From Bacilli bacterium (lineage in GTDB: Bacteria > Bacillota_I > Bacilli_A > RFN20 > CAG-826), in the NCBI GenBank assembly GCA_045597865.1, contig JAZLKX010000025.1, positions 256,001 through 320,000 of the forward strand: a stretch of DNA of 64,000 nt. Direction: 5' to 3'. The position numbers were made by a program, and so were the translations under genes. Within the stretch, counting starts at the first letter, position 1; every line of letters starts with the position of its first letter. The notes below the pieces were generated by a model. That model was not told the origin of the DNA. It made no database searches and saw only the letters and a list, made by a program, of their open reading frames with translations. Positions 2,733 to 60,600 of this stretch are shown here, in pieces.

Positions 2733-2814
2733 AAAAAATAAAGAACCCTTCGGGGTTCTTTTTTAAATTTTTTATCGGATTTCCAAAAATCACTGTAAAT
2801 AGTAAGTGAGAGGA
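2733..2814 (+). repeat. copy 1 of an 82-bp terminator + putative promoter + RBS element; copy 2 at 60519-60600 on -
   Basis: 2733-2776 matches the reverse complement of 60557-60600 at 42/44; the next 38 nt match 24/38 ungapped, ending in GAGGA. Confidence 0.85.
2740..2764 (+). terminator. intrinsic terminator of greA
   Basis: aaagaaccc-ttcgg-ggttcttt hairpin followed by T tract. Confidence 0.85.
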
Positions 2815-2824
2815 GATTCGATTT

Positions 2825-3001
2825 ATGAAATATAAATTAAGTGAACAAGAAGCATCAAAAATTGTAACTGGAGAAGTTACTTTGACTGCTGTTTTAGCAA
2901 TATGCGCAATTGCAATTGCAGCAGTAATTGTTTACAAGATGTTCATGTCTAGTGAAGGAAGTTCAACCGTTCCAGGTGGTTGGAAATTTTCTTGGAAGTA
3001 A
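2825..3001 (+). CDS. 58-aa peptide with double-glycine-type leader and hydrophobic core: MKYKLSEQEASKIVTGEVTLTAVLAICAIAIAAVIVYKMFMSSEGSSTVPGGWKFSWK (not in ORF track)
   Basis: strong RBS gagaggag; stop overlaps radC start (TAATG); LSEQEASKIVTG resembles LSxxELxxIxGG. Confidence 0.8.
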   Translation: MKYKLSEQEASKIVTGEVTLTAVLAICAIAIAAVIVYKMFMSSEGSSTVPGGWKFSWK

Positions 3002-3672
3002 TGGCAATCAAAGATATTCCTATTGAATTACGCCCGCGAGAAAAGGCGATACATTTTGGAATTGAGGAATTGTCTGATTCTGAACTATTAGCTTTGCTAA
3101 TTGGTTCAGGATATAAAGGAAAATCTGCCATTGATGTAGCAAATGATTTATTATCCAGCTACTTCAATTCTATGTATTCTTTGAGTAATTCAAATTTAAC
3201 CTCATTAATGACTCACACTGGATTAAAAGAAGCGGTGGCCTTACGTCTTTTAGCAGCCTTTGAATTTCATCATAGGCTAAACTCCCCGCGTTATCAAAAA
3301 CAAGACTCAATTAAATCGGCAGGAGAAATTTACTTAAGATATCAGTATTTGGAAAATTATGATCAAGAAGTTTTGATAATAATTATGCTTGATTCAAAGA
3401 ACAGAATTAAACAAGAAAAACTGCTTTATAAAGGTACTTTTGATTCATTCCAAATTGATGTTAGACAAATACTCCAAGAGATAATATTAGCTAAAGCTAA
3501 ATCTTTTATTTTAATCCATAATCATCCTGATGAAGCTAGCTATGCGAGCGAAAACGATATTTTAGCAACACAAGTTATTGAAAAATCTGCTAAAAATCTC
3601 GGAATAAAATTAATTGACCACATAATTATTTATCGAGGAGGTTATTGCACAATTAAAGGAGAAAAAGGCTAG
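3001..3672 (+). CDS. radC: RadC family JAB-domain protein
   Basis: RPREK, LSDSELLALLIGSG, HNHP...D and IDHIII motifs; start moved to ATG 3001. Confidence 0.93.
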   Translation: MAIKDIPIELRPREKAIHFGIEELSDSELLALLIGSGYKGKSAIDVANDLLSSYFNSMYSLSNSNLTSLMTHTGLKEAVALRLLAAFEFHHRLNSPRYQKQDSIKSAGEIYLRYQYLENYDQEVLIIIMLDSKNRIKQEKLLYKGTFDSFQIDVRQILQEIILAKAKSFILIHNHPDEASYASENDILATQVIEKSAKNLGIKLIDHIIIYRGGYCTIKGEKG

Positions 3673-3760
3673 AAAAATATTATAAAAAATTTTCTGTTTT
3701 CTAGACGAGGTATATACAAATTGAAAATTTATTAATAATAAAGTATAATATTTGACAATT

Positions 3761-5158
3761 ATGGCTAAAAAACAAAATTCGAATATTAAAGCGAAAGTAG
3801 AAAATACTCGCACAAAACTTTTTAAACATAGAATGGTTGAACAAGATATCGCAAAAGGATTGATGATTTTTGCTGTTATCTTTTGTCATACTGTTCCATT
3901 ACCACAACTTGCAGACACAATTCTTAGATCTATCTTAGGAATGGTTATACCATTTTTCTTCTTTATTTCTGGCTACAACTACAAAGAACCTGAGTCTTTG
4001 CCAGATACATTCAAAGGAAAAGCAGGTCTTTATTGGCAAAGAGTTAAGAAAAGATTAAGACAAATTCTTGTTCCATTACTTTTCTGCTCCCTAATTTTAT
4101 TAGGAATTGGCGCTGGTTACTCATTTTTAACTCATGATCCAGTGGTTTCTCCACTTGATATGACTAAAGCATTTGCTGGTTTCTGGATTAGCGAGCCAAT
4201 TTCATCTGCTGTAGGTTTACCTACAATTGGAACTTTTGAAGGCATTGAAAGACTTTATGAACCAAACTGGTTTATTCTTCATATGACTCTTGCTTATGTC
4301 ATCTTCTATGCAGTTGTTGACTGGGCTTTATCAAATAAAAAACGTTACATTTCAGTAATGTTTGGTTTAATTGCGGTTTCATGTATCTTCAACTTCTTCC
4401 ACTTAAAAATGCCTTGGGGATTTGAAAATGCTGCTGCTTATGCAGCAATTATGCTTATGGGTTGTGGTGTTAAACACAAAAACCTATTCTCAGAAGAACG
4501 TTATTCAAAGAAATATTGGCCATGGATTAACTGTGCAGCCTGTTTCTTAATTTGTGTTGCTTTGGGTTTCCTTTGGCCAAGAGCTGGACAAATCTCTGGT
4601 AGTGGACAAATTACTAAAATTTTCAGTGAATTTGCAGATGCCGCAGGTCAACCAGCATTTGCAATTTTAGAGATTCCATACACTATTATATATAGTGTTA
4701 TCTCATCATATTTCTTAATCTGGTTCTGTAAATTACTTGCAAAAGTTAGACCAATTAAATTCTTCTATTCATACATGGGTAGAAACTCATTAATGATTTT
4801 AGTTTTCCATTTAGTCTTTGCATCAGTTGCAATCGCTTTATTAAATGTTATGTTCTATCAAGGTGTTCCAGCCGATGAAAAACTTAAGATGGCAACCCAA
4901 ATTGGTAAATACGCAGAAACTTTTGAACCAATTAGACTAGCTGTCTTTGCCTTAACTGTTGTATTCTCATTAATTTTCGTTACTTGTAACGTAGCTTGCA
5001 AAGAAAGATTCCGCAAACACAAGAAAATGAACCAACTTTGTAAGGAAAAACGTGAAGAATTATTAAAAGATTCTTCATTAACAGAAGAACAAATAAAAGC
5101 ACAAATAAAAGCATATAGATCAGAACTTAGAAAGACTATTAAGGTTCAGATTGCATAG
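3761..5158 (+). CDS. acyltransferase-3 family membrane O-acyltransferase
   Basis: DIAKGLMIFAVIFCH, PFFFFISGY, WFI and GRNSLMILVFH motifs; about 10 TM segments. Confidence 0.85.
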   Translation: MAKKQNSNIKAKVENTRTKLFKHRMVEQDIAKGLMIFAVIFCHTVPLPQLADTILRSILGMVIPFFFFISGYNYKEPESLPDTFKGKAGLYWQRVKKRLRQILVPLLFCSLILLGIGAGYSFLTHDPVVSPLDMTKAFAGFWISEPISSAVGLPTIGTFEGIERLYEPNWFILHMTLAYVIFYAVVDWALSNKKRYISVMFGLIAVSCIFNFFHLKMPWGFENAAAYAAIMLMGCGVKHKNLFSEERYSKKYWPWINCAACFLICVALGFLWPRAGQISGSGQITKIFSEFADAAGQPAFAILEIPYTIIYSVISSYFLIWFCKLLAKVRPIKFFYSYMGRNSLMILVFHLVFASVAIALLNVMFYQGVPADEKLKMATQIGKYAETFEPIRLAVFALTVVFSLIFVTCNVACKERFRKHKKMNQLCKEKREELLKDSSLTEEQIKAQIKAYRSELRKTIKVQIA

Positions 5159-5211
5159 TTTTCTTTGAAAAATTGCTTTACAAATAAATAAGATAATATT
5201 AATATTATAAA

Positions 5212-5292
5212 CGTTGTCGCCTCACGAGCTACAACCGCATAGAGAAGGTTCTCTAAGTTAATGCCTTTGGCATTACACCTTAATAGCGAGTC
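5212..5292 (+). ncRNA. ribosomal protein L21 leader
   Basis: gttgtcgc...gctacaaccgca...aaggt...acctt..gcgagtc pattern directly upstream of rplU. Confidence 0.75.
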
Positions 5293-5318
5293 CTTAGTGA
5301 GAAAGTAGAGGTATTTAA

Positions 5319-5627
5319 ATGTACGCTATAATTGAATCAGGTGGAAAACAAATCCGCGTTGAAGTCGGACAAAAGATTTTTGTCGAAAAATTAGATGTTA
5401 AGGAAAATTCAAAATACGTTTTTGATAAAGTCCTTCTCGTCGCAGACAAAGATGTCAAAGTTGGTACACCATACGTTGAAGGTGCTAAAGTATCTGCTAA
5501 AGTCGTTAAGAACGGACTCGGCAAAAAGATTCGCATCTACAAATACAAAGCTAAACACAACTCAGCACGTAGAACAATTGGTCATAGACAACCATATACA
5601 TGCTTAGTCGTTGAATCAATTGCCTAA
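5319..5627 (+). CDS. rplU: 50S ribosomal protein L21
   Basis: [18 protein letters not shown]. Confidence 0.98.
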
Positions 5628-5630
5628 TTT

Positions 5631-5942
5631 ATGATTAAAATTGAGGCAACTCGTAAAGACGGAAAGATAGTTAATCTAACCGTCAAAGGGCACGCAAATT
5701 CTGCTCCAAAAGGTGAAGATCTTATCTGCGCTGCAGTGAGTTCAATCCTATTCGGAGGATGTAATGCTCTATCTCAACCTAATTGCTTTGCAATTAAATT
5801 AGATAGTGGCGATGCATCAATTACAGAAATTAAACGTGCTAATGAACACGATTACGAAGTTCTTGAAACAATGATTATTCAATTCAAAACAGTTGAAGAA
5901 TCAAATGCCAAATTCCTTCAAGTAATCGAGAAAGGAAATTAG
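5631..5942 (+). CDS. prp: ribosomal-processing cysteine protease Prp (YsxB)
   Basis: GHA...G.DLICAAVS motif; between rplU and rpmA. Confidence 0.93.
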
Positions 5943-5944
5943 TT

Positions 5945-6226
5945 ATGTTATTTAAATTAGATCTACAACTCTTTGCTTCCAAAAAAGGTGTCGGTTCTAC
6001 CAAAAACGGACGTGATTCAGAATCCAAGAGATTAGGTGCTAAGTTATCTGATGGACAATTCTGTACAGCAGGTAGCATCATCTATCGTCAAAGAGGTACC
6101 AAAATTCTTCCAGGAGTTAACACCAAACGTGGTGGAGATGATACAATCTTCGCAACAATCGATGGTATTGTTAAATTCGAAAGAGTTGGTAAAAACAAAA
6201 CCCGCGCTTCAGTTTACGCAAAGTAA
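5945..6226 (+). CDS. rpmA: 50S ribosomal protein L27 with Prp-cleaved N-terminal extension
   Basis: LDLQLF|[15 protein letters not shown]. Confidence 0.98.
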
Positions 6227-6245
6227 GTTAAAGACGAAAATAATT

Positions 6246-6273
6246 AAGACCGCAATAAAATTGTGGTCTTTTT
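6246..6273 (+). terminator. terminator after rpmA
   Basis: aagaccgcaa-taaaa-ttgtggtctt plus T tract. Confidence 0.7.
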
Positions 6274-6301
6274 CATACTCGCGTGTGTATAATATAGATG
6301 T

Positions 6302-7573
6302 ATGTTTATCGATAAAGTTGTTGTAGAAGTTCGTTCTGGCAAGGGCGGCGATGGCATGATTGCTTTCTTAAGAGAAAAATGTATGCCAAAAGGTGGCCCA
6401 GCTGGTGGTAATGGCGGTCGTGGTGCTTCCATTATTTTTAAAGCTGTCAGAAACATTAACACTTTATTCAACTTTAGACACAGCAAAGTTTTTATCGGAC
6501 CAGATGGTGAAAAAGGTGGAACCAAAAACAAATACGGTCACAAAGCCGATGATGTAATCATCGAAGTACCATGTGGAACCGTAGTTTATGAAGAAAAGAA
6601 TCATAAATTCATCGGAGATTTATCCGAAGAAGGCCAAACTTTAGTAGTCGCTAAAGGCGGTCGTGGCGGAAGAGGCAATGCCGCTTTCAAAAACGATAGA
6701 AACAAATGTCCAAAAATTGCAGAAAATGGACTTCCAGGTGAAACAAAACGTCTCATTATGGAACTTAAACTTCTTGCAGATGTTGGTTTAGTTGGACTTC
6801 CAAATGCTGGAAAGTCAACACTTTTAAGTGTTGTATCTAACGCAAATCCTGTAATTGCTGATTATCCATTCACAACTTTAGAGCCAAATCTAGGTGTTGT
6901 TAATGTAAATAAAGATTCATCCTTTGTTATGGCAGATCTTCCAGGTCTTATTGAAGGTGCTAGCCAAGGCAAAGGCCTCGGACTTTCGTTCTTACGTCAT
7001 CTTGAAAGATGCCGCGTTATTATTCATTTAGTTTCTATGGAAGAAGAATCTCCATACGAAAACTATAAAATGATTCAAAAGGAACTCAAGTCATATGGAA
7101 TGGGCTTAGATAAACGCCCATTAATTGTTGTAGCAAGTAAAGTTGACTCTGAAGAGTCTGAAATTAAATTCAAAGAATTTAAAAAACACTTCAAAACACC
7201 AGTTTTAGCTTTATCCAGCCTTACTAATCAAGGCGTTAAGGAAATTGTAAGTAAGTGTCAAGAATTGCTTGCTAAAACAGAGAAATTCCCACTCTTCAGT
7301 AATGAAGAAAATCCAGAAGTTAAGGTTTATGATGCATATGCAAATGAAAAACCTGTATTTGAAGTTGTTCACGAAAAAGAGCATGTCTTTAGACTTGTTG
7401 GTGAATCAATTGAAAGAACTTATGGACTTATTAATATTTCTACAGATGAAGGTATGCTAAGATTGCTTAACTATCTTAAAAAGATAGATGTCGAATCTGC
7501 ACTTAAAGAGAAAGGCGCTCAAAATGGTGATTCTGTTTGGCTTTGCGATTTTGAGTTTGAATACTTAGAATAA
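6302..7573 (+). CDS. obgE: GTPase ObgE/CgtA
   Basis: Gly-rich Obg fold, GLPNAGKST, YPFTT, DLPG; C-terminal OCT domain. Confidence 0.97.
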   Translation: MFIDKVVVEVRSGKGGDGMIAFLREKCMPKGGPAGGNGGRGASIIFKAVRNINTLFNFRHSKVFIGPDGEKGGTKNKYGHKADDVIIEVPCGTVVYEEKNHKFIGDLSEEGQTLVVAKGGRGGRGNAAFKNDRNKCPKIAENGLPGETKRLIMELKLLADVGLVGLPNAGKSTLLSVVSNANPVIADYPFTTLEPNLGVVNVNKDSSFVMADLPGLIEGASQGKGLGLSFLRHLERCRVIIHLVSMEEESPYENYKMIQKELKSYGMGLDKRPLIVVASKVDSEESEIKFKEFKKHFKTPVLALSSLTNQGVKEIVSKCQELLAKTEKFPLFSNEENPEVKVYDAYANEKPVFEVVHEKEHVFRLVGESIERTYGLINISTDEGMLRLLNYLKKIDVESALKEKGAQNGDSVWLCDFEFEYLE

Positions 7574-7577
7574 CAAT

Positions 7578-8306
7578 ATGGAACTTAAAGAATATTTATC
7601 CGAAATTGAAAAATTTCTTCAAGATTATTTAGAAAAATCACACTGTAAATCATATGTTTTAGGTTTAAGCGGAGGTGTTGATTCTTCTTTAGTTGCAGCT
7701 ATTGCAAGAAAAGCTGTTGGAAAAGACAAACTTTATTGCTATGCAATAAGTATTGATTCAAATAAAGCTGATGTTAACGATGCAATCGAAGTTGCAAAAC
7801 AACTTGATTTAAATCTTGAAGTTATCGATTTAAGTAAAACTTACCACAAATTCTTAAAAGAACTTGGTGGCAAAGATTTTATTAGACTTACAAAGTCAAA
7901 TCTTAAAGTTAGAATGAGAATGTGTGCCTTATTCGCTTATGCTCAAGAGCATAATGGCTTAGTATTAGGCACAGACAACATGGATGAAAGATACGTTGGT
8001 TACTTCACAAAATATGGTGATGGCGCAGCAGATGTTCTTCCAATTGTTTATTTAACTAAGGCAGAAGTTAGAGAAGCTGCAGAGATTTATGGTGTTTCTA
8101 AAGCTTTAGCTTTAAGGGTTGCATCAGCAGGCTTATTTGAAGGCCAAACTGATGAAGGCGAAATGGGCGTAAGTTATGCCGATCTTGATGCCTTCCTTTT
8201 AGGCAAGGAAATTGCTCCTGAAGCAAAATCCAGAATCGAACACATGCATGCAGTAAGCGAACACAAGAGAATTGAGATTCCAACTCCAAAACCTTTTAAA
8301 CGTTAA
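7578..8306 (+). CDS. nadE: NH3-dependent NAD+ synthetase
   Basis: GLSGGVDS, GYFTKYGDG, GQTDE. Confidence 0.96.
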   Translation: MELKEYLSEIEKFLQDYLEKSHCKSYVLGLSGGVDSSLVAAIARKAVGKDKLYCYAISIDSNKADVNDAIEVAKQLDLNLEVIDLSKTYHKFLKELGGKDFIRLTKSNLKVRMRMCALFAYAQEHNGLVLGTDNMDERYVGYFTKYGDGAADVLPIVYLTKAEVREAAEIYGVSKALALRVASAGLFEGQTDEGEMGVSYADLDAFLLGKEIAPEAKSRIEHMHAVSEHKRIEIPTPKPFKR

Positions 8307-8329
8307 TCTTAAAAAATAATTAATAATTT

Positions 8330-8352
8330 ACTTCCTATTTAGGAAGTTTTTT
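8330..8352 (+). terminator. terminator after nadE
   Basis: acttcct-attt-aggaagt plus T tract. Confidence 0.7.
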
Positions 8353-8430
8353 ATTATAATAAAAAGTAACAAGAATAAGAAAGAAATATTCGCCTATTAG
8401 AATACATTAGTAGAGAAAGGCGGTATTTTT

Positions 8431-9006
8431 ATGCTTTATTCAATTAAAGGAAAAGTATCTTTTGTTGACAAACGTTTTATTGTTGTCGAAACAGGAGGAA
8501 TTGGCTATGAAATTTTAGTAGCCAATCCAGAATCATTTTTAGTGGGAGAAGATACGTTTTTATTTTTGCACCACGAAATCAAAGAATTTGATGAATATTT
8601 AGCAGGCTTTAGGTCTCAAGATGAAAAGGACGCATTCGACTTATTGCTTCATGTTAACGGTGTTGGACCAAAATCAGCTTTAACGATTTTATCAAATGTA
8701 AATTATCAAGATTTAATGGTGGCTATTTCTAACTCTGATCTTGGATTTATTACTAAAATTCCAGGTATAGGCCCAAGAGCTGCAAATCAAATTCTTTTAG
8801 ACTTGCAAGGTTTTATTGCTAGAAGCAATAGAGAAAATGTTAAACAGTATTCTGAAGTAAAAGCAGCATTAAAGGCTCTTAAATTTAAAGTCAAAGACAT
8901 CGATAAAGTTTTACCACAAATTTATATCCCAAACGGCACCAATGAAGAAATAATAAAAGAAGCATTAAAGAGGTTACATTATGCCGAGACTTTCGGACAA
9001 AAATAA
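8431..9006 (+). CDS. ruvA: Holliday junction branch migration protein RuvA
   Basis: GGIGYE, VNGVGPKSAL, IPGIGPRAA HhH motifs. Confidence 0.95.
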   Translation: MLYSIKGKVSFVDKRFIVVETGGIGYEILVANPESFLVGEDTFLFLHHEIKEFDEYLAGFRSQDEKDAFDLLLHVNGVGPKSALTILSNVNYQDLMVAISNSDLGFITKIPGIGPRAANQILLDLQGFIARSNRENVKQYSEVKAALKALKFKVKDIDKVLPQIYIPNGTNEEIIKEALKRLHYAETFGQK

Positions 9007-9985
9007 GAATTTAAAGGAAGAAGCAATTGAAGCTTCATTAAGACCTCAAACTTTGGATGATTATGTTGGACAAGATGATTTAAAGAACAATCTAAAAATT
9101 TTTATTGGTGCTGCAAGAGGAAGAAACGAAGTTCTTGATCATGTTTTGTTGTACGGTCCAGCTGGACTTGGAAAAACTTCTTTAGCTTACATTATTGCAA
9201 ATGAAATGCACGGCAACATTAAGTTGGTTAATGGACCAAGTGTCGAAAAACCAGGAGATTTAGCCGCTGTTTTATCAACTTTAGAAGCTGGAGATATCTT
9301 ATTTATCGATGAAATTCATCGATTACCACGCGTAGTTGAAGAAATTTTATATAGTGCAATGGAAGATTATAAATTGATAATTATGGTTTCTCGTGATGCT
9401 TCAACAGCATCTACAATTACAGTTGATCTTCCACCTTTTACTTTAGTAGGAGCTACAACTAGAGCTGGTGATTTATCTTCTCCATTAAGAGCAAGATTTG
9501 GAATATCAGAGAAAATTAACTATTACACCATAGAAGAACTTAAAAACATTGTACTTAGAACCGCAAATTATTTCGGAGCAACAATTGATGAAGTTTCTGC
9601 TACTGAAATCGCGAAACGCTCACGTGGTACTCCGCGTATTGCAAATCGTATTTTTAGAAGAGTTAGAGACTTCGCAAATTACGAGGAAAGAAATATCATC
9701 AGCATAAATGACGCAGAGAAAGCTTTAAAGGCTCTCAAAATTGACGAAAATGGGCTAGATGAAGTAGATATAAACTATTTGCAAACGATTAAAAATCGTT
9801 TTGGTGGTGGACCAGTCGGTTTAGAGACTATTGCGTCTGCTATTGGAGAAGAGACTTCAAACCTTGATGAAGTTTATGAACCATACCTTTTAAAAATGGG
9901 CTTTATCGACCGCACTCCGAAGGGAAGAATCTTAACCGAAAAAGGAAAGGGATATTTAAAAAAATATGAAACTACTAAGAATTAG
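8981..9985 (+). CDS. ruvB: Holliday junction helicase RuvB
   Basis: LRPQTLDDYVGQ, GPAGLGKT, FIDEIHRL, RGTPRIA. Confidence 0.98.
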   Translation: MPRLSDKNKNLKEEAIEASLRPQTLDDYVGQDDLKNNLKIFIGAARGRNEVLDHVLLYGPAGLGKTSLAYIIANEMHGNIKLVNGPSVEKPGDLAAVLSTLEAGDILFIDEIHRLPRVVEEILYSAMEDYKLIIMVSRDASTASTITVDLPPFTLVGATTRAGDLSSPLRARFGISEKINYYTIEELKNIVLRTANYFGATIDEVSATEIAKRSRGTPRIANRIFRRVRDFANYEERNIISINDAEKALKALKIDENGLDEVDINYLQTIKNRFGGGPVGLETIASAIGEETSNLDEVYEPYLLKMGFIDRTPKGRILTEKGKGYLKKYETTKN

Positions 9986-10325
9986 AAATGGTTATCTATA
10001 TAATAGTGATGATCCAAATGGATATCATGATTATTTGGCTTTTTATAATAAAGAAACAAAAAGCTATTTTCTAGTCCAATTAACTCATCTTTATGTATGG
10101 GATAAGAAAAGATATGTTCAAGTCAAAAGAGGAGATATTTTAGTTCAAAAATTTAAAGAATATGAAACACCTAGTGGAGTAAAGAAAGAAATTTACGAAA
10201 AAGATTTAAAGGGAAACAAAATTAGAATAAATCAAAATGACGAAATAAAGAAAATTTATAGGAATATTTCAATGAAACAAGAAAAAATAATCAAAGATTA
10301 TATTTTTAGCAAAAAGAAAACGTAA
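9966..10325 (+). CDS. orphan basic AT-rich protein, possibly toxin/RNase-like
   Basis: 119-aa ORF overlapping the ruvB 3' end; no recognised family. Confidence 0.65.
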   Translation: MKLLRIRNGYLYNSDDPNGYHDYLAFYNKETKSYFLVQLTHLYVWDKKRYVQVKRGDILVQKFKEYETPSGVKKEIYEKDLKGNKIRINQNDEIKKIYRNISMKQEKIIKDYIFSKKKT

Positions 10326-10361
10326 TCATCGAGGACTACGTTTGAGAATATTTTCTCGCTG
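10310..10361 (-). ncRNA. candidate ~50-nt small RNA convergent with the orphan ORF
   Basis: minus-strand TTGACA(10395-10390)-17 nt-TTTAAT(10372-10367) with TGn; two hairpins then TTTCTTTTT. Confidence 0.45.
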
Positions 10362-10589
10362 GAATTATTAAAACAAAGATTTCCTGCTTTGTCAATAAAA
10401 GAAAGCTTAAAAAAAGAAGTCATACAAAATTTTATATATTATGTCGCTATATAGTTCTTTCATTTATGAATTTTTACTATACTTTCCTAATCGTGAAAAC
10501 CATTATTTTCTTTACTTTATAAGTAAATCATAGTAAAATCTTACGCGGTCGAAAAATTGACACTATTTATTACATAAAGGAACAAGATT

Positions 10590-13253: not shown

Positions 13254-13261
13254 TTTAATTT

Positions 13262-13284
13262 GGGCTACTTTGTAGCCCTTTTTT
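13262..13284 (+). terminator. terminator after secDF
   Basis: gggctac-ttt-gtagccc plus T tract. Confidence 0.7.
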
Positions 13285-13294
13285 GTACTTAAAT

Positions 13295-14854: not shown

Positions 14855-14937
14855 TACATACACATTTGTGTGTATAAGTGCGCACAACTTTGTTAAAATA
14901 TATTAAATGAAGTTTCTAATAAAGTGGAGGCTCAATT

Positions 14938-18073: not shown

Positions 18074-18103
18074 AGACATTCACTTCGGTGGATGTCTTTT
18101 TTT
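18074..18103 (+). terminator. intrinsic terminator
   Basis: agacattcac-ttcg-gtggatgtct plus T tract. Confidence 0.8.
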
Positions 18104-46315: not shown

Positions 46316-46340
46316 AATCAAAAAAATAAGGATATAATCC

Positions 46341-46493
46341 TTACTTTTTCTCCTTGTGCACTGTGTGCTTTTTGCATTTCCAGCAGTATTTCTTGGTTTC
46401 TAATCTGTCCGGATGCTCTTTTTTATTTTTGTTTGTGATGTAGTTTTCTTCACCACAGACTGTGCACTTAAGTGTAATATTATCTCTTGGCAT
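46341..46493 (-). CDS. rpmG: 50S ribosomal protein L33, Zn-binding form (not in ORF track)
   Basis: translates [50 protein letters not shown]; RBS aaggag. Confidence 0.97.
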
Positions 46494-46583
46494 AGGTTTA
46501 TCTCCTTTGCAATTTGCTCAAAAATAATAGCACAAAGAATAAAATATATCTACAAGATATTTAATCTTTGTTATAATCTACAT

Positions 46584-47642: not shown

Positions 47643-47667
47643 AAAAAGAGAGATTAATCTCTCTTTT
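47641..47667. terminator. bidirectional terminator between ispG and nfo
   Basis: aaaaaagagaga-ttaa-tctctctttt. Confidence 0.7.
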
Positions 47668-49883: not shown

Positions 49884-49940
49884 AATTTTTCCCGCGCTTT
49901 ATTATACACGTAAAATTATAAATGTGCTATTATAGAAACC

Positions 49941-51566: not shown

Positions 51567-52218
51567 AAGATTCAAATCTCCTTATTTCTTCATCAATTAA
51601 CTTAGAATCTTCAAAATGTTTTTTGCTTTTCATAAGATTTTTCTTAATTGTCAAAAGCTTAGAAATTGTTCGTTTTTTATAACCTTCAAATAAAGGATCT
51701 AAAAACAAATTATAGCCATATTCAATTTGTTCGGATGTATAATTTATCTTATTCTCATTTCTTATAAAAGAAATGATATTATAATAATGATTTCTCTCAA
51801 ACACTAATTTTTCGCATTCAATATTAAATCCGAAACCAATGATAGCTTCTCTTACTTTTGGAATAAATGAGTGAGCATCAACAATTATTTTTTTAACATT
51901 TTTTAATTTGTTTTTATTTCTTGAAATAATTTCAATAATTGTATCTCCGCCCATTCCAGCTAAAACGATTGTATCGTATTCAGAAGTGACTTGATTTAAA
52001 CCATCACTATGAGAAACATCAACATTTTTCAAACAACAAACTGCAGAACGTAAAGCAGACAATGGCCCCTCTTTATTTTCAACAGCTAAAATATGATAGT
52101 TCTCTAAATGAAGAACAAAGTATTGCTCTAAAAGACCATGATCGGCTCCAATATCTGCGATATATGAACCATCAGGTATCAAATCTCCAATTACTTGTAA
52201 TCGTTTTGGAATTTGCAT
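51553..52218 (-). CDS. trmK: tRNA (adenine22-N1)-methyltransferase
   Basis: ADIGADHG, GP, SDGL, AGMGG; follows sigA. Confidence 0.9.
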   Translation of the reverse strand: MQIPKRLQVIGDLIPDGSYIADIGADHGLLEQYFVLHLENYHILAVENKEGPLSALRSAVCCLKNVDVSHSDGLNQVTSEYDTIVLAGMGGDTIIEIISRNKNKLKNVKKIIVDAHSFIPKVREAIIGFGFNIECEKLVFERNHYYNIISFIRNENKINYTSEQIEYGYNLFLDPLFEGYKKRTISKLLTIKKNLMKSKKHFEDSKLIDEEIRRFESYGQN

Positions 52219-53561
52219 TAGTTTTTAACTTCTCTATAGTCACCTAAACGAGAAACACGTTTACGTGATCTTAATTTTTTAATAGCTTTTGCTTCAATTT
52301 GACGAATACGTTCACGAGTAACACCAAATTCTTTACCAACTTCTTCAAGTGTTCTTGGGTGATTATCAAGTAATCCGTAACGGAGTTCAAGAACTCTAGC
52401 TTCACGATCTGTTAACTCTTTCATAACATCATAAAGTTCATCTTTAAGAAGTGATTTTGTAGTATATTCACTTGGTGATTCAACTTCCTTATCTTCAAGG
52501 AAATCGCCTAAGTGTGAATCATCCTCTTCACCAATAGGAGTCTCTAAAGAGACTGGTTCTTGGTTAATACGTTGAATTTCTCTAATACGAGCAGCACTTA
52601 AAGATCCTTCTAACTTATCGGAAATTTCTTCTGCAGTTGGATCTCTGCCTAACTCTTGGACAAGTTGACGTTGTGCTCTTGTAATTTTATTAATTGTTTC
52701 AACCATGTGAACTGGAATACGGATTGTACGAGCTTGGTCTGCGATTGCACGTGTGATTGCTTGTCTAATCCACCATGTTGCATAAGTTGAAAACTTAAAT
52801 CCTTTTGTATAATCGAATTTTTCAACAGCTTTAATTAAGCCCATGTTACCTTCTTGAATTAAATCAAGGAATGGCATGCCGCGGCCTGCATAACGTTTTG
52901 CAATAGAAATAACTAAACGTAAGTTTGCATTAATTAAATCTTGTTTTGCATCGTCATCGCCAGCAACAATACGCTTTGCTAGTTCAATTTCTTGTTGAGC
53001 ATTTAAAAGAGGAACTTTTCCGATTTCTTTAAGATAAATCTTAACAGAGTCATTAACTTTGACATCACCAACAACTAATTTGGAAATATCTTGAAGTTCT
53101 TTTTCATCAGGAACATCGCCCTCATCAAGATCCATAGCTGCTTCGTCTTCATCAAATTCTAGTTCTTCTAAACCTTCCTCATCAGAATCGGAAATAACAT
53201 TAATTTTATTGGATCTAAAAAATTCGATAAGACCAGCAACATCTTCATCAGATAAATCTAAAAATGAAACTGCTTCATCAATTTCGGCTTGTTCAATTTC
53301 GCCACCATCAGCTTTCGCTTTTTTAAGTAAGCGTTTCTTAATGGAGTCTAAAGACTCGACTGCTTCATCACCATCAATTTCATCAATATCATCTTTTGCT
53401 TTTGAAACTTTCTTTGTTGGTTTCTTTGCAGCTGGTTTTTCTTTCTTAGCGGCTGGTTTAACTGCTTTTGCTGCAGGTTTAGCGGCCTTTGCAACTTTTT
53501 TAGCAGCTGGTTTTGCTGCTTTTGGAGCCTTCTTTTCCTTCTTTTCTACTTCCTTAGCCAT
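52218..53561 (-). CDS. sigA: primary sigma factor SigA/RpoD with Lys/Ala/Pro-rich N-terminus
   Basis: [39 protein letters not shown]. Confidence 0.98.
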
Positions 53562-53588
53562 TTAATCGTCCTCCTTCAATTTGACGTC

Positions 53589-55397
53589 TTAATTGTTCTT
53601 TTTCTTTGAAAGATAGTCCGCAATAATTTTTGCTCTTTCTTCAGGAGTTAATCCTTCAAGAGCATCGCTGACTTTCTTTTTCTCGTATAAACGAGTTCTT
53701 TCTTCATTTATTACTTTAGAGATCTCCTCTAAAGAATTTTTCGATAATTTAACTTTGCTTTCATTGCTTGTAATGGCACTAACAGTGGAAATAACCTTCT
53801 CTTTATTTTTAACTTCACTTAGTTCCATTTCAGTAATTAAAGAACTTGGATCAATTTCACCATTTGTTTTAACTTGTTCAATCAAGAAATTTGCAATCGA
53901 ACGATAAATTTCATCAGTGAAATATTTAATGTTTGTTTCATAAAAAGCAATTGCTTCTTTTGATTCAAACATCATGTCGAGCATTGTTCTTTCAGCAAGA
54001 GTTAGTCTTCTAACATCTTTTGAAACTGACTTTAAGTCAGTTGTAGAACCAAAATCAGCATTAACATTTAATACTGAATCATTATTGCTACCACGTTTTG
54101 ACATAAAGTCACGCAAATAATTGTTTATTGCGCCACTTGAGAATCCAGTTGCATCAGCGAGTTTGTAAATATAATCATCGCGAACGAGTTTTTCTCTTAT
54201 AGATGCAATCATTGGCATAAAGTGTTTAATTACTTTCTTCTTGTCATCAATTGTTCCTAATGGAGATGTGTTTTTGTAATAATTTAATGCGAATTGGAAT
54301 GGATCCACTAAGGTGTTTACAAATTTTTGAAGCGTTTCTTCACCATCTTGTTTTAAGATTTCATCAGGATCACGAATTTCTCCTGGAAGCGAAACTAAAC
54401 GATATGGAAGATGAGCCTCATCAAGTTGAGACATAAGTTTCATCATTGCTGTTTGTCCTGGTTTATCACCATCAAGACAAACTCTAACTTCAACTCCAAG
54501 TCTTCTAATTAATTCAATATGTTGTTTTGTAAGTTTTGTAGACATCAATGCTACACAAGATGTAATTCCAATGGAATCAAGTGCAAAAACATCCATAAAA
54601 CCTTCAACTACATAAATGTAGCCATCATGTTTTGCAGTTTGTTTTGCTTGCCAGTAATTATATAAAATATTACCTTTGGTAAAAATTACAGTTTCTGGCG
54701 AATTTACATACTTTGGTGCGTCAGGATCTTCTACAATTTTACGGGCTGAGAAACCACATACTTGACCATTTGCATCTTTGATTGGGAAGATTAATCTTCC
54801 TTGGTTGTTATCACACATTCCTGAGGTTTGTGCTAGAGCAATACCTGTGTTCTCAATATTCTTTAAAGAGAAGCCTTTTGCTTTCAAATATTCAATGGTC
54901 ATCTTTCCATCTTTTAAGGCATAGCCTAAACCAAATTTCTTTGCTTGTGCATCAGAAAGATGACGTTTTGCAAGATAATCTCTAGCGACTTGTCCTTCTT
55001 CTGTTGCTAAAGCATAGACGTAATATTTTTGAAGCTCATTAATGCAGTTATAAACTGGAATTAAATTTTCATCAACCTTTGGTTGATATGTTTGCTTGTG
55101 AAGTCTTGGGTCATCGAACCCAATAATGTCACAAACTTTTAAAATTGCATCGTTAAAACTGCATTTTTCATATTCTTTTACAAACTCAATTACATCACCG
55201 CCGGTTTGGCAAACGAAACAATGGAAAGTTTGTTTATCTTTGCTGATTTGCATTGATGGATCGTGGTCATCGTGAAAAGGACAAACAGCCACATAGCCTT
55301 TGCCTTTCTTTTGAACACTCGGAAGATAATATGAAATAACGTCGACTATGTCGGCACGTTGTTTTATTTCCTTAATTAAATCTGCATCAAATGCCAT
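53589..55397 (-). CDS. dnaG: DNA primase
   Basis: CPFHDD..PS Zn finger, KYVNSPET, VEGFMD, DGDKPG. Confidence 0.97.
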   Translation of the reverse strand: MAFDADLIKEIKQRADIVDVISYYLPSVQKKGKGYVAVCPFHDDHDPSMQISKDKQTFHCFVCQTGGDVIEFVKEYEKCSFNDAILKVCDIIGFDDPRLHKQTYQPKVDENLIPVYNCINELQKYYVYALATEEGQVARDYLAKRHLSDAQAKKFGLGYALKDGKMTIEYLKAKGFSLKNIENTGIALAQTSGMCDNNQGRLIFPIKDANGQVCGFSARKIVEDPDAPKYVNSPETVIFTKGNILYNYWQAKQTAKHDGYIYVVEGFMDVFALDSIGITSCVALMSTKLTKQHIELIRRLGVEVRVCLDGDKPGQTAMMKLMSQLDEAHLPYRLVSLPGEIRDPDEILKQDGEETLQKFVNTLVDPFQFALNYYKNTSPLGTIDDKKKVIKHFMPMIASIREKLVRDDYIYKLADATGFSSGAINNYLRDFMSKRGSNNDSVLNVNADFGSTTDLKSVSKDVRRLTLAERTMLDMMFESKEAIAFYETNIKYFTDEIYRSIANFLIEQVKTNGEIDPSSLITEMELSEVKNKEKVISTVSAITSNESKVKLSKNSLEEISKVINEERTRLYEKKKVSDALEGLTPEERAKIIADYLSKKKNN

Positions 55398-55406
55398 ATA
55401 ACAAAG

Positions 55407-56777
55407 TTATTCCTCTAATTGTTTTTCTAAGTAAGCACGAACTTCACTAATTGGAAGTCTGATTTGTTCCATTGTGTCTCTATTACGAATTGTGACGCTC
55501 TTATCATTTGGAGTATCAAAGTCAACTGTAATACAAAATGGAGTTCCGATAGCGTCTTGTCTACGATATCTCTTACCAATTGAGGCAGTTTCATCATAGG
55601 AAACACTAAAGTGTTTTGCTAAATCGAGTTGTAATTCTCTTGCGAATTCTCTTTGCTCTTTAGAGAGTGGTAAAACTGTTGCTAAATATGGAGCAAGTTT
55701 TGGAGCAAAATGCATTACAATTCTGCTATCGTTTTCTAATTGTTCAACATCGTATGCTTCGCATGCAACCATTAGGAAGATACGATCAACACCCATAGAT
55801 GGTTCGATACAATATGGGATGTATTTTTCGTTTGTCTCTGGATCAAGGTATTCAAGTGATTGCTTTGAAGCATCCATATGACGTTTAAGGTCATAGTCAG
55901 TTCTATCAGCAACACCTAAAATTTCACCCCATCCAATTCCTGGGAATAAGTACTCAACGTCACATGTTCCTTTGGAATAGAATGCTAATTCTTCTGGTTC
56001 GTGGTCTCTATAACGTAAATTCTTTTCACCAATTCCGAGTGATTCAAGGAATTTTAAGCTATAATCTTTCCAGTATTTGAACCATTCAAGGTCTGTTCCT
56101 GGTTTACAGAAGAATTCACATTCCATTTGTTCGAATTCACGAACACGGAAGATAAAGTTACCTGGTGTAATTTCATTACGGAAGGATTTTCCGATAGCGC
56201 AAATACCAAATGGTATTTTCTTTCTGCTTGAACGCTGAACGTTCTTAAAGTTAACGAACATACCTTGGGCTGTTTCTGGACGTAAGTAAACTAAAGATTC
56301 ACTTGCTTCAGTAACACCAATGTGTGTTCTAAACATCATGTTAAATTGTCTAATGTCTGTGAAATCTGATTTACCACAAACTGGACATTTAACTTTGTTA
56401 TCTCTGATAAATTCCATCATTTGTTCTTGGGTCATACCATGAACATCAACATCTGGGAATTGTTCTTCAATTAAATTGTCAGCTCTATGTCTTGCGTGAC
56501 ATGACTTGCAGTCAATTAATGGATCTGAGAAAGTTGCAACGTGTCCTGTTGCTTTCCAAACTCCTGGATTCATTAAAATAGCAGCATCAATACCAACATT
56601 TGTTGGAGATTCTTGAACGAATTTCTTCCAATAAGCTTTCTTAATGTTGTTTTTCAATTCAACACCTAATGGACCGTAGTCCCATGAGTTAGATAGTCCA
56701 CCATAGATTTCTGAATCTGGGTAAACAAATCCACTTGTGATTAAGTGATTCACTATTTCATCAAATTTCTTTTCCAT
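55407..56777 (-). CDS. glyQS: glycine--tRNA ligase, homodimeric (alpha2) type
   Basis: WDYGPLG, LRPETAQG, FRNEITP, IEPSMG, IGKRYRRQD. Confidence 0.96.
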   Translation of the reverse strand: MEKKFDEIVNHLITSGFVYPDSEIYGGLSNSWDYGPLGVELKNNIKKAYWKKFVQESPTNVGIDAAILMNPGVWKATGHVATFSDPLIDCKSCHARHRADNLIEEQFPDVDVHGMTQEQMMEFIRDNKVKCPVCGKSDFTDIRQFNMMFRTHIGVTEASESLVYLRPETAQGMFVNFKNVQRSSRKKIPFGICAIGKSFRNEITPGNFIFRVREFEQMECEFFCKPGTDLEWFKYWKDYSLKFLESLGIGEKNLRYRDHEPEELAFYSKGTCDVEYLFPGIGWGEILGVADRTDYDLKRHMDASKQSLEYLDPETNEKYIPYCIEPSMGVDRIFLMVACEAYDVEQLENDSRIVMHFAPKLAPYLATVLPLSKEQREFARELQLDLAKHFSVSYDETASIGKRYRRQDAIGTPFCITVDFDTPNDKSVTIRNRDTMEQIRLPISEVRAYLEKQLEE

Positions 56778-56859
56778 ATATTATGAACCTCATTTAAAAA
56801 TGATAGCGATAAATATCTACCTTTTCAACTAAATTGTCAACCTATTTTAAGTGTACTTC

Positions 56860-57576
56860 TTAAATTTGGCTTAACAAAGTTAAAGATTTAAATCTAATTT
56901 GAGATGTCCAATCAAGGAAATCAGCTAATTCGAAAATTATATTTTTTATTTCTTCTTTACCAAAGGTAACTCTTGTAAAATTATCTAAATCTACTTTAAA
57001 GATATAACGCATTATTTTAAGCTTTCTGACATCAGTTTTTGTGTGTTTAGATTCATCAAAACAATTTTCACAAATAAATCCGCCGTCTTTATAAGAAAGC
57101 GATATTATTGATGAAGTTTTTCCACAAACGGCACATTTATCAACGTTTAAACCATAACCCGCAACAACCAAAACATGAGCAAAATAGATTGCGAGAGCTG
57201 TCCAAGCATCAAAACCGCCATTCAAACTTTCAAGAGTTTTGCTTAAATAATCATAAATATTTTCAGCGTCATTTGATTCAAGCAAAGTATTAGTTAATTC
57301 TGACACAAAATCTAGAATTGCAAGTTTTTCTAAATCGCCACTAATATTTGGAAATGAGTCAATAACTTCACCCACTCTAAGCCAGTCTCCTTCTTTGCCA
57401 TGAAAGACCTGTAATCTAGACTTTGTGAATAAATTCACACTTGGAGCATTTTTGGAGGTCATTTTTAAAACACCTTTTGCCAAAAACGAACGTATTCCGT
57501 CTTTAGTTAAAACAGTTATCATTGCTGCACCTTCTTTAAAAGTTGTGCGTTTAATAACTATGCCTTCAAATTCCAT
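56860..57576 (-). CDS. recO: DNA repair protein RecO
   Basis: N-terminal OB fold; CAVCG...GGFICENC Zn site; era-recO synteny. Confidence 0.9.
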   Translation of the reverse strand: MEFEGIVIKRTTFKEGAAMITVLTKDGIRSFLAKGVLKMTSKNAPSVNLFTKSRLQVFHGKEGDWLRVGEVIDSFPNISGDLEKLAILDFVSELTNTLLESNDAENIYDYLSKTLESLNGGFDAWTALAIYFAHVLVVAGYGLNVDKCAVCGKTSSIISLSYKDGGFICENCFDESKHTKTDVRKLKIMRYIFKVDLDNFTRVTFGKEEIKNIIFELADFLDWTSQIRFKSLTLLSQI

Positions 57577-58448
57577 TATTTGTAGCCTAATTCTTTTAAA
57601 ATTCTTGGATTATTCAACCAGTCTTCTTTAACTGAGACAAATAACTCAAGGAAAATTCTCTTATTATAGTATTCTTCAAGATCGGTTCTAGCTTTCATGC
57701 CGATAGCTTTAATGCGTTTTCCGCCTTTGCCAATAACAATGCCTTTGTGTGATTCTTTATCTACGATAATAGTAGCGCGAATATAAACTGCTTCGCTCTT
57801 TGATTTTATTTCATCAACACGAACTGCTAAATCGTGAGGCACTTCGTCCTTTAGAAGCTTTAATAACTTCTCGCGAATTACTTCGCTAATCATAAAGTTA
57901 GAATCTTTATCTGTAACTTGGTCTTCGGCAAAGTATCTTGGGCCTTCTTGAATGACTTCCTTAACTTTGTTAAGAAGAGTATCAATACCAAAGTTTTCAA
58001 TTGCTGATGCTTCAATAAGTTCAGCGTGAGGATAAGCTTCTTGATACTTAGCTTTAATTGCTTGCACTTCATTAATTCTCTTCAAGTCAATTTTATTGAT
58101 GACAATGAATAAAGGAATGTTTTTAGGAAGAGATTCATTAATGAATTCATCTCCAGCATCAAATTTTCTAGAGGCATCCACCACTAAAATATTTGCATCA
58201 ACATCTTTTGCACTATCAAGAGCTTCTTTATTCATAAAGTTGCCAAGTTCATGGTTTGCTTTATGAATTCCTGGAGTATCAATAAAGATAATTTGATATT
58301 CTCCATCATCGTAAATTCCTTTAATGGAATTACGTGTTGTTTGAGCCTTTTCAGTGACAATTGAAAGCTTACGCTCTAAAAGAGCGTTAATAATTGTAGA
58401 CTTACCTGCATTTGGTCTACCAACAATTGACACGAATCCGCTTTTCAT
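57576..58448 (-). CDS. era: GTPase Era
   Basis: GRPNAGKST, QTTR, DTPG, NKID, KH domain. Confidence 0.98.
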   Translation of the reverse strand: MKSGFVSIVGRPNAGKSTIINALLERKLSIVTEKAQTTRNSIKGIYDDGEYQIIFIDTPGIHKANHELGNFMNKEALDSAKDVDANILVVDASRKFDAGDEFINESLPKNIPLFIVINKIDLKRINEVQAIKAKYQEAYPHAELIEASAIENFGIDTLLNKVKEVIQEGPRYFAEDQVTDKDSNFMISEVIREKLLKLLKDEVPHDLAVRVDEIKSKSEAVYIRATIIVDKESHKGIVIGKGGKRIKAIGMKARTDLEEYYNKRIFLELFVSVKEDWLNNPRILKELGYK

Positions 58449-58849
58449 TATTTTAAATCGTCTGCTGAGAATGCAAATGGAAGAAGCTCAACAATGTTGG
58501 TTTCTTGAACTGCACCCTTTAAGTTTGCCATGTAAATAGGAGCATCTTTTGGGAAAAGTTCACTAATGACTTGTCTGCAAGCTCCGCATGGTGAACACGG
58601 TTCATCTGTATCAGCAATTAATGCTAATGCCACCATATCTTCTTTCTTAACGCCATTCATTTTTGCATTATAAAGTGCATTTCTTTCAGCACACATGCAA
58701 AGTGGGTATGAAGAATTTTCGACATTTGCGCCAAGATAAACTTTTCCGTCTTTACATAGTAAAGCTGCACCAACTGCAAAGTGTGAGTATGGTGAGTAAG
58801 AAAGTTTTCTAGCTTCTTTTGCTTTTTCAATAAGTTCTTCTGGTTTCAT
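58448..58849 (-). CDS. cdd: cytidine deaminase
   Basis: YSPYS, CAERNA, PCGACRQ. Confidence 0.97.
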   Translation of the reverse strand: MKPEELIEKAKEARKLSYSPYSHFAVGAALLCKDGKVYLGANVENSSYPLCMCAERNALYNAKMNGVKKEDMVALALIADTDEPCSPCGACRQVISELFPKDAPIYMANLKGAVQETNIVELLPFAFSADDLK

Positions 58850-59295
58850 TATTTGAGTCCTCCCAAAATTTCATCCTGTAATTTAAACATTACAATTTCA
58901 TCTTCTTTTTTCATGTGATCATAACCGAGTAAATGAAGCATGCCGTGTGTAAATAAGAACGACATTTCTCTTAAAAGAGAATGCCCATATTCTTTTGCTT
59001 GCTCCTCGGCTTTTTCAAACGAAATGATGATTTCACCCAAAGAAATTGGTCCGCCTTTAAGCTTTTTCTCTGATTCTTCATCTTGGAAAGCAAAGCTTAT
59101 GACGTCAGTTGGTCGATCTACAAATCGATAATATTTGTTGATTACATGAATATCTGCATTGTTCATAATTGTAACATCAGTCATGTATTCGCCTTTTAGA
59201 CCAAGATGCTTAAAGATTTTAACGTACAATTCGTTAAATACTTTCTCGTAAGAATCAAATTCTTTTGGTCCGTGATTTGTAAATTCCAATACCAT
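58849..59295 (-). CDS. ybeY: rRNA maturation endoribonuclease YbeY
   Basis: PTDVISF, HGMLHLLGYDH. Confidence 0.97.
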   Translation of the reverse strand: MVLEFTNHGPKEFDSYEKVFNELYVKIFKHLGLKGEYMTDVTIMNNADIHVINKYYRFVDRPTDVISFAFQDEESEKKLKGGPISLGEIIISFEKAEEQAKEYGHSLLREMSFLFTHGMLHLLGYDHMKKEDEIVMFKLQDEILGGLK

Positions 59296-59338
59296 AATTC
59301 TTGGGAAAGTATTATAACATACTTTATTGTTAATTCAT

Positions 59339-60511
59339 CTATAAATTACATTTATCAAAGAAGACGCACTCGGATTTATACATTTCTTTCCTGTTGGAAA
59401 GACCCTCAATTAATTGTGAATAAGAACTGAAACCAACGTAATAGAGTCCGAAGTGGAATATTACGTAATTACAGCCGCTTGCGCCAGTTAAAAACATCAT
59501 CGTTAAAGCAAACGCAAATGCAAGTACAATATAAACAATTTGTTTTAACTTATTTGTAATTGCTGTTTCATTTGCAAGGCTATTTGCTTTATAAGCATAA
59601 TCAGCGCACATCTCTTTAGTTTCAAAACATTTTTCTTCGTATCTACCAATTTTATAACGTTTATCCTCAAACGATTTTGAAAATAAAGTCATTTCTAATA
59701 TTTTGACAAGAACTAGAGCAATTAAAGCAAACACATTTCTAAAATCATTTAAGCAAAGCAAAAATGTAATCATAAAAGCAACTAAAACTGAGCTTAATAA
59801 ACTACGAGAAGTTGAGAAATAATTTTGCTTAAAACCGATGTATTCCAAATAGCTTAATTTTGTTTGATTTGAACGCCTTGAAAAATATGGGTCAATATAT
59901 TCATTATCAAAGAAATTTATTTCTTTGTTAATTATAATATTCTCTATAATTTGAGTGCCCATAAATAAGAACAAAAATAGCAACGAAAAAATGGCATTTT
60001 CTTGATTGTTTAGTAAGTAAAAAGTTGCTATTAAAATTGCAGAAGAAAACACGGAAGTAATGGTTTCTAATACTTTTAGTTTTGTAGGCAAAATTGAACG
60101 ACGAATTTTGCTAATTTCACCCATGCAATCAGTTGAATCTACTTCTATTATGATTCTTGTCCAAATCGCGAAAAATTCATCTTTCTTTAATTTAGTTACT
60201 CCAAATTCTGGATCAAGAAAAACAATTCTTTTCTTAGTAACTTTCTTAATCATTACGACGTGATTCCCACGTATTAGTGTTAAAGATGGTGTTTTTAGTT
60301 GATCATAATAATCATCTTCACAACTGTAGGACGATAGTTTCAATCCATGCAAAGCAGCTTCTTTACAAATATCATCTACTGTAAAAGCTCCTTTTCTTTT
60401 AATCTTCTTTACATATAAATAGGATTTGTCCTTACTTAGATGCGCCATCAACATCTTTAAACTGGTAAAGCCACAATCATGGTCATTACCTTGGAAAATA
60501 AAATATTTCAT
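59339..60511 (-). CDS. C39 peptidase fused to a membrane domain, without ABC ATPase domain
   Basis: QGNDHDCG (Q..C), NHVV (H), FLDP (D) triad; about 5-6 TM helices; no Walker A/B. Confidence 0.82.
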   Translation of the reverse strand: MKYFIFQGNDHDCGFTSLKMLMAHLSKDKSYLYVKKIKRKGAFTVDDICKEAALHGLKLSSYSCEDDYYDQLKTPSLTLIRGNHVVMIKKVTKKRIVFLDPEFGVTKLKKDEFFAIWTRIIIEVDSTDCMGEISKIRRSILPTKLKVLETITSVFSSAILIATFYLLNNQENAIFSLLFLFLFMGTQIIENIIINKEINFFDNEYIDPYFSRRSNQTKLSYLEYIGFKQNYFSTSRSLLSSVLVAFMITFLLCLNDFRNVFALIALVLVKILEMTLFSKSFEDKRYKIGRYEEKCFETKEMCADYAYKANSLANETAITNKLKQIVYIVLAFAFALTMMFLTGASGCNYVIFHFGLYYVGFSSYSQLIEGLSNRKEMYKSECVFFDKCNL

Positions 60512-60518
60512 TAAAAAA

Positions 60519-60600
60519 TCCTCCTAATTATAATTTCCGGAGAATTTTACAAAAGTGATAAAAAATTTAAAAAAGAACCCATAAGGGTTCTTTATTTTTT
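60519..60600 (-). repeat. copy 2 of the 82-bp element (rpsU terminator + putative promoter + RBS of the C39 gene)
   Basis: reverse complement matches 2733-2814 at 66/82 ungapped. Confidence 0.85.

Follow-up and report, generated by a model that had tools for sequence, protein, structure and literature searches.

Why should two separate genes of one bacterial genome be preceded by nearly the same DNA element? The question is raised by a window of 64,000 nt (contig JAZLKX010000025.1 of assembly GCA_045597865.1, positions 256,001-320,000; 1.74 Mb in 58 contigs) from a Bacilli bacterium of the RFN20 group. One copy of the element precedes a gene for a 58-amino-acid precursor peptide which is followed by radC, the other a gene for a C39 peptidase. 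A first-pass annotation had considered these to be a two-gene system for peptide maturation or signalling. As judged from sequence comparisons, the shared element very probably is a terminator hairpin joined to a promoter that belongs to the late competence regulon and would be read by a SigH-type sigma factor.

Two copies of one element and the regulon behind it

Positions 2733-2776 and the reverse complement of 60557-60600 were identical at 42 of 44 sites with both mismatches in the hairpin loop. The following 38 nt matched at 24 sites without gaps. GAGGA was in register in the two ribosome-binding sites (RBS) and both genes opened with ATG AAA TAT, all as initially described. The sign of the GC skew switches near 36 kb, and so peptide-radC and the C39 gene are indeed on opposite replichores; both genes are on the leading strand. 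Copy 1 is on the plus strand behind the housekeeping gene greA (2243..2719; Pfam GreA_GreB_N and GreA_GreB). Its hairpin (2740..2761), a 9-bp stem and then a T-run, is the greA terminator. The 43-nt promoter-like motif (2765..2807; matrix score 51.1, leave-one-out 47.7) has a putative -35 part at about 2772-2779 and a putative -10 part at 2793-2800. The RBS, identified by its sequence (2808..2815), and the precursor gene (2825..3001) follow. The start of this open reading frame (ORF) was corrected to 2825, and the start codon of radC (3001..3672; Pfam RadC and UPF0758_N) overlaps the peptide stop. Copy 2 is on the minus strand. Here a 57-amino-acid ORF (60607..60780), presumably rpsU, precedes a hairpin (60572..60593) with a stem identical to that of copy 1, the motif (60526..60568; matrix score 44.2, leave-one-out 37.8) and the gene of a 390-amino-acid protein (59339..60511) which consists of a C39 peptidase and an exporter-type membrane domain of the ATP-binding cassette (ABC) family without the ATPase domain. 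Next comes ybeY (58849..59295), in relatives the landmark for the conserved location of the protease gene. The claim that the two hairpins terminate unrelated genes was thus supported by Pfam for greA; the name rpsU was read from the sequence.

Is the match a generic terminator which was copied in front of two unrelated genes? The identical part is mostly A/T-rich terminator, and in relatives the hairpin was common to both loci in genomes G074 and G141 and not in G045, G129, G115 and G150. However, the hairpin has only two copies in the genome (the 44-mer was searched with up to 13 mismatches allowed), and the look-alike behind the terminator at 18074 lacks the promoter motif (matrix score -14.8). 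The motif runs 43 nt past the hairpin and picks out competence genes, and leader and protease co-vary (see below). A copied terminator can hardly be the explanation. A DNA-uptake sequence was ruled out as well since the hairpin has two genome copies. An Rfam scan gave six matches, all far under the gathering scores.

For the promoter matrix, which was seeded with the two copies only, the 43 nt behind the hairpin were used without the RBS. The matrix converged on 13 sites in the genome with scores of 40.7-51.9; the next-best site scored 15.7. Leave-one-out scores of the 13 sites were 32.9-48.7, and the best scores in 10 block-shuffled strands 10.6-20.4. The sites were upstream of recA, dprA, comEA-comEC, an eight-gene operon with a TadA-type ATPase, peptide-radC and the C39 gene. 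Further sites preceded a YhcG nuclease, two unknown genes, two ABC-FtsX fusions and a thioredoxin-like gene which is followed by a UvrD-type helicase. Others were in front of two DUF4160/DUF2442 pairs, one of which is split by an IS605-type element. That the shared promoter serves an alternative sigma factor of the competence type had been suspected, and recA, dprA and comEA-comEC bear this out; ssb, one of the genes which the first-pass annotation had proposed to check, was without the motif, as was the SigH-like sigma gene discussed below (score -4.0). The notion of an element private to two genes had to be abandoned: its downstream part has 11 further copies and marks a whole competence regulon.

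At 10 of the 13 sites a perfect palindrome ended at a fixed spot before the motif. It measured 7-14 bp and its stem came in several sequences, and the copy 1 hairpin sits at just this spot. In controls, stems of at least 6 bp occurred anywhere in 79 of 323 windows. The palindromes are flanked by A-tracts and keep a constant distance to the promoter, also in G074. Often they are not followed by a T-run and therefore are not always terminators.

Several features behind these promoters deserve mention on their own. An IS605-family element with a TnpB-type gene is inserted directly behind a competence promoter (L007:7715-8860, contig C39 of this genome, G000). The DUF4160 genes pair with DUF2442-helix-turn-helix genes in a toxin-antitoxin-like manner (L009:1158-1867 and L007:6819-7543). 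At locus L005 (C25:98971, minus strand) the stretch of about 260 nt behind a strong promoter site lacks a long ORF and contains a hairpin, possibly a competence-induced small RNA or leader. A metatranscriptome assembly of a related strain had depths of 141-447 for the flanking housekeeping genes and of 0-2.6 for peptide-radC; such contigs give neither levels nor start sites, and two raw-read runs contained 1 and 0 reads.

Relatives were surveyed at the level of the family (151 genomes) and the order (51 genomes), next to 347 other Bacilli that were scored; 141 genomes of a second family, Erysipelotrichaceae, were assigned via source names. As to conservation of the element upstream of orthologues, the architecture was kept, yet the exact sequence drifts by lineage. 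In G074 the motif is spelled differently, and five of its eight matches with at most one mismatch preceded the peptide gene, the C39 gene, comEA, dprA and the tad operon. With two mismatches the reversed pattern gave 17 matches compared to 21; therefore, only the top matches count. Peptide and C39 genes of one genome had upstream regions more similar to each other than to those of other genomes (p = 1.5e-4, n = 10), and in 8 of 20 comparisons a region's own partner ranked first (permutation p = 5e-5). Fourteen genomes in which a start was not extractable were left out. The same within-genome likeness was seen in 11 Erysipelotrichaceae (p = 4.5e-4). Upstream regions of acpP, used as controls, had no such effect (p = 0.35 and 0.48).

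The 5' regions of the peptide genes (L072-L151) have a peculiarity. In 67 of 70 distinct regions the RBS pairs with an upstream arm which overlaps the putative -10; for comparison, this kind of pairing was present in 99 of 236 ordinary genes of this genome. Such pairing would silence read-through transcripts, not those from the competence promoter. That RBS hairpins compensate for a missing terminator was unsupported (0.82 vs 0.74 paired, p = 0.095). In some genera long 5' hairpins lie between promoter and RBS of the peptide or protease gene, possibly as regulatory RNA; at L026, L029, L030, L033, L049 and L059 they are located about 100 nt before the start and carry a pyrimidine-rich loop.

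Which factor reads the motif? A PF04542 search of the genome retrieved only sigma A and a sigma factor on contig C52 (266 kb; L041), whose phage-like genes resemble those of a large phage binned with the genome. ComK was not found by a profile search of this genome, and the profiles TIGR02937 and PF08281 missed its SigH-like gene. A weak match in G074 led to a 202-amino-acid gene after cysS-rlmB, whose counterpart here (C28:49744-50352) is 29% identical. The order is cysS-rlmB-sigma gene with nusG two genes beyond, and a gene of 171-220 amino acids was present behind rlmB in 30 of 30 loci. PMC3364868 places sigH at the cysS-nusG locus and describes activation of competence genes, and PMC3486894 describes comG and comE under SigH control and a 5' inverted repeat which lowers sigH expression. 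Here the RBS of the sigma gene was paired in a hairpin in 20 of 21 scored cases (7 of 28 regions were without a scorable site). Across one family the sigma proteins (L425-L454, L242) are only 12-24% identical and the promoter spelling shifts along; this drift constitutes a natural set for studying sigma-promoter co-evolution. Probably, the motif is read by a divergent, fast-evolving SigH-like factor encoded at the canonical sigH locus. SigH models were among the best matches for five of six proteins scanned (E-values of 1e-8 to 1e-12), which is in favor of this assignment. Three observations speak against it and the competence regulon: all these SigH matches are far below cut-off; the sigma factor of this genome has no NCBIfam match at 1e-4; and about half of the 13 sites precede genes without a known competence role. 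Motif scans for comFC, coiA and radA, a weak test, gave no match.

The leader peptide and its protease

The peptide was present in 148 of 151 family genomes, in 51 of 51 of the order and in 7 of the 347 other Bacilli, and six of these seven matches, on inspection, were real homologues. Thus, a conserved gene of 58 amino acids without a family, which annotation had missed, is added. The peptide has no Pfam or NCBIfam family, and the nearest Atlas clusters are unnamed. Its nearest named relative (88%) is in Candidatus Fiminaster equi (Bacilli incertae sedis at NCBI). A leader-bearing form is identical to annotated proteins of Dielma fastidiosa and Traorella massiliensis and is therefore testable in named species. 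Statistics were compiled from 80 peptide loci. In 79 of these radC was next, and in none was a C39 gene within 6 kb.

The precursor consists of a leader (residues 1-16; 2825-2872), a hydrophobic helix (about 17-41) and a basic beta-hairpin which ends in PGGWKFSWK. The mature part, a 22-residue helix and a two-strand hairpin, is conserved at 64-70% compared to 38% for the leader, and the last 21 residues carry a net charge of +2 to +4 in 74 of 80 loci. Double-glycine leaders, as summarized in PMC6363468, have Leu-12, Glu-8 and Leu-7 before the double-glycine motif. Seventy-six leaders were anchored (4 of 80 were not anchorable): position -12 was Leu or Met in 76/76, -8 was Glu in 66/76 and -7 was Met, Leu or Cys in 66/76, with Ala at -7 in this genome. 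Gly-1 is invariant (24/24), and distant members carry Gly-Gly at -2/-1. Structural searches added little. A fold search with the peptide model was uninformative (best Z 3.3), a PDB sequence search yielded membrane-helix matches only, and a four-copy complex prediction of the mature peptide gave no answer (score 0.08) and was not used as evidence.

The C39 protein was detected in 138 of 151 family genomes by a single-query search. The gene is nearly always single-copy, codes for 386-402 amino acids and is located before ybeY. The peptidase domain (PF03412, E = 4.9e-17) has Q7, C13, H84 and D100 invariant in 24/24. Top fold matches of the structure model (pLDDT 88.6) were PCAT1 entries, i.e. of a peptidase-containing ABC transporter (PCAT), with E = 1.3e-13 and a TM-score of 0.63 over the query. 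The protein ends at 390 residues, before the ATPase domain, and so is without the C-terminal nucleotide-binding domain of a PCAT. According to the model it is a former peptide exporter which has lost its ATPase domain, not a PCAT, and acts like the protease half of one. It is the single C39 protein of this genome and the peptide is the single leader match.

A comparison within the second family connects the two. Among Erysipelotrichaceae the peptide profile matched 50 of 141 genomes; after removal of three weak matches inside long frames, 47 were retained. Eighteen have the leader (50-59 amino acids) and 29 are leaderless (34-44 amino acids); G263 was counted as leaderless by its second Met, in agreement with its congener G228. 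A profile for short C39 proteins, made from 13 stand-alone proteins which are homologous to the domain in the window (probability 98.9), matched 18/18 leader genomes and 0/29 leaderless genomes. By genus this amounts to 10 with leader vs 17 leaderless. In six leader genomes outside the profile set the C39 match also was directly before ybeY. These stand-alone proteins have 111-128 amino acids and are without the membrane domain. Elsewhere, G352 combines the leader form with a C39 exporter of at least 633 amino acids, and G165, a genome of 0.6 Mb, has the leader form, a C39 gene and comEC. The pairing of protease and substrate proposed by the first-pass annotation is thus supported by co-occurrence: leader and protease co-vary, and the protease occurred only alongside the leader-bearing form, with G551 as the exception.

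The proposed enzyme-substrate link is well supported, and it is highly likely that the C39 protein removes the leader from its only substrate by cleavage behind Gly16, on the cytoplasmic side. Some findings argue in the opposite direction. Gly at -2 was present in only 8 of 76 leaders. G551 has a short C39 protein and no peptide match. Mapped on a RadC tree with 45 rows, the leader state needs 5 changes (5-6 in bootstraps), yet strongly supported branches force only a single change, and the losses may be fewer than 29; a single leaderless clade was rejected with p = 0.019 in the presence of long branches. A natural series of losses names an enzyme-substrate pair without experiment, and double-glycine processing would here be uncoupled from export.

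What the processed peptide may do

Of the 151 family genomes, 144 had ComEC and 128 had the Tad ATPase. The 23 genomes without the ATPase had no PF00437 match over cut-off (G063, where the gene is present, gave no match in this search either). They include three whole genera; 22 have the peptide, 20 the C39 protein and 19 have peptide, C39 and ComEC together. G036, 91% complete, is without peptide, protease, ComEC and Tad ATPase. The peptide tracks ComEC more closely than the pilus. This bears on the idea that the peptide is the main subunit of a DNA-uptake filament with the C39 protease in place of prepilin peptidase. An A24 prepilin peptidase (PF01478) was detected in 4 of 151 genomes and not found in 147, although 128 have the Tad ATPase; peptide and C39 genes have their promoter in common with the tad operon; the peptide gene occupies the place that an A24-like gene has in some relatives; and the second-best local match of the peptide profile was the small gene of the tad operon (E = 0.46). 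Yet peptide and protease persist in most of those 23 genomes, the tad operon has a pilin-like gene of its own, and the peptide lacks the Flp motif G/XXXXEY as given in PMC4322843. A full-length Tad-type match was present in 31 of 47 Erysipelotrichaceae with the peptide, i.e. absent in 16, and in 26 of 94 others. We consider a pilin improbable. The Tad-type operon itself (L006:1079-5614; C57:57678-62216) is under a competence promoter and is led by a gene of the MG284/MPN403 family (above cut-off); its pilin-like genes have 6-residue leaders, yet A24 was not found in 147 of 151 genomes, as stated.

The first-pass annotation had a signalling role in mind. A quorum-sensing pheromone would be processed and exported like streptococcal ComC by ComAB, with which leader type and protease family are in common. 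In a distant neighbour cluster of the Atlas 30% of the members have the ComC family (score 0.83), a lead only. But the C39 protein has no ATPase domain and in relatives membrane domain and leader are lost, too. The product has 42 residues with a full membrane helix, is not diversified at the strain level and occurs in leaderless forms. Motif scans revealed no LytTR regulator or histidine-kinase G-box, a weak test, and sigH has no motif of its own and so no feedback loop. The series runs from the full exporter via one without ATPase and the bare protease to neither leader nor protease. Therefore, export appears unneeded and the working product is the core of about 40 residues. Because export parts and leader are dispensable, the product probably is a membrane peptide inside the competent cell. 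A pheromone is very unlikely and the signalling role was dropped.

A competence-linked killing peptide is a more serious alternative. The leader would prevent a membrane-active peptide from doing harm before the protease is induced, and DNA would be set free when siblings or part of the population lyse, comparable to pneumococcal CibAB or to a self-lysis peptide. A double-glycine-type leader with a hydrophobic, cationic core conforms to this. Single members weakly match class II bacteriocin models (E = 0.012-0.022), whereas the peptide of the window had no match. The two ABC-FtsX fusions and the thioredoxin-like protein (a weak PedC/BrcD match) of the regulon could be immunity or maturation factors. 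On the other hand, the gene is single-copy at a fixed chromosomal position in 51/51 genomes of the order, its core is better conserved than its leader, no immunity gene adjoins (radC is next in 79/80), none of 50,697 phage or 72,556 plasmid records matched and leaderless forms persist without a guard. Killing is possible, though clearly not favored.

We prefer a membrane-resident accessory of ComEC-dependent uptake, with a rough probability of 0.55; killing peptide, pilin and pheromone rank behind in this order. In this scheme the SigH-type sigma factor encoded after cysS-rlmB would read the late competence promoter behind the terminator hairpin. The induced C39 protein would remove the leader after Gly16 at the cytoplasmic side. 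The 42-residue product would not be pumped out and would stay in the membrane as a single helix with the basic, aromatic beta-hairpin facing the cytoplasm. There it may serve a ComEC-dependent step, e.g. as a small oligomer which scaffolds or tethers incoming DNA and the processing proteins. The leader may only block helix insertion until the protease is present; lineages which lost the leader also lost the protease. Two points count against the accessory role: the orientation is deduced from charge alone, and the peptide was present in only 47 of 141 Erysipelotrichaceae, in which ComEC was not surveyed, so that it is not a universal uptake part. A bolder version is rather doubtful: a structural uptake part of wall-less and reduced Bacilli, i.e. 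a protease-gated subunit forming a ring or short filament beside ComEC as a pilus stand-in, which would derive from a bacteriocin export system after stepwise decay of the transporter.

Wall-less families are predicted within RFN20 in PMC10868615. Mur ligases were not found in this genome or in G074; several were found in G079, a genus of the same family with many extra sigma factors and without the Tad ATPase. The findings may bear on DNA uptake in bacteria without comG, without prepilin peptidase and often without a wall, and an order of uncultured gut Bacilli gains a defined competence regulon and a candidate master sigma factor.

Relation to known systems

Competence-induced bacteriocins such as CibAB share the competence promoter, the double-glycine-type leader and a protease encoded elsewhere. 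Here, in contrast, there is one gene without an adjacent immunity gene, conservation is order-wide, a working exporter is missing and leaderless forms occur naturally. A description of the peptide family with its private, export-free protease was not found in the literature, of which most subscription papers and the gene tables in supplements were not covered.

PCAT1, ComA and LahT, as described in PMC6363468, have in common with the present protein the C39 domain with Gln, Cys, His and Asp and an exporter-type membrane domain, and their substrates have leaders with Leu-12, Glu-8 and a hydrophobic residue at -7. They differ in that here the ATPase domain is absent and in Erysipelotrichaceae the membrane domain is lost, too. 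Furthermore, in none of 80 loci do gene and substrate lie within 6 kb of each other, Gly-2 mostly is replaced and the substrate is a conserved core gene. Transformation in Micrococcus luteus, according to PMC4322843, similarly uses a tadA-tadB-tadC-like operon with comEA/comEC in place of comG. It requires the TadV peptidase, whereas 147 of 151 genomes here yielded none; nor is the peptide a Flp pilin.

Also close are the SigH regulons of Staphylococcus aureus and Lactobacillus sakei and the ComX regulon of streptococci (PMC3486894, PMC3364868). As here, the sigma gene is at the cysS-nusG locus, promoters precede comEA-comEC, dprA and recA, and the RBS of S. aureus sigH is reported to be buried in a hairpin. 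Here, unlike in those regulons, a Tad-type operon replaces comG, a prepilin peptidase was not found in most genomes, the promoter spelling varies from genus to genus and a peptide-protease pair is added. The regulon itself belongs to a known type; the peptide family and the export-free protease are what appears to be new.

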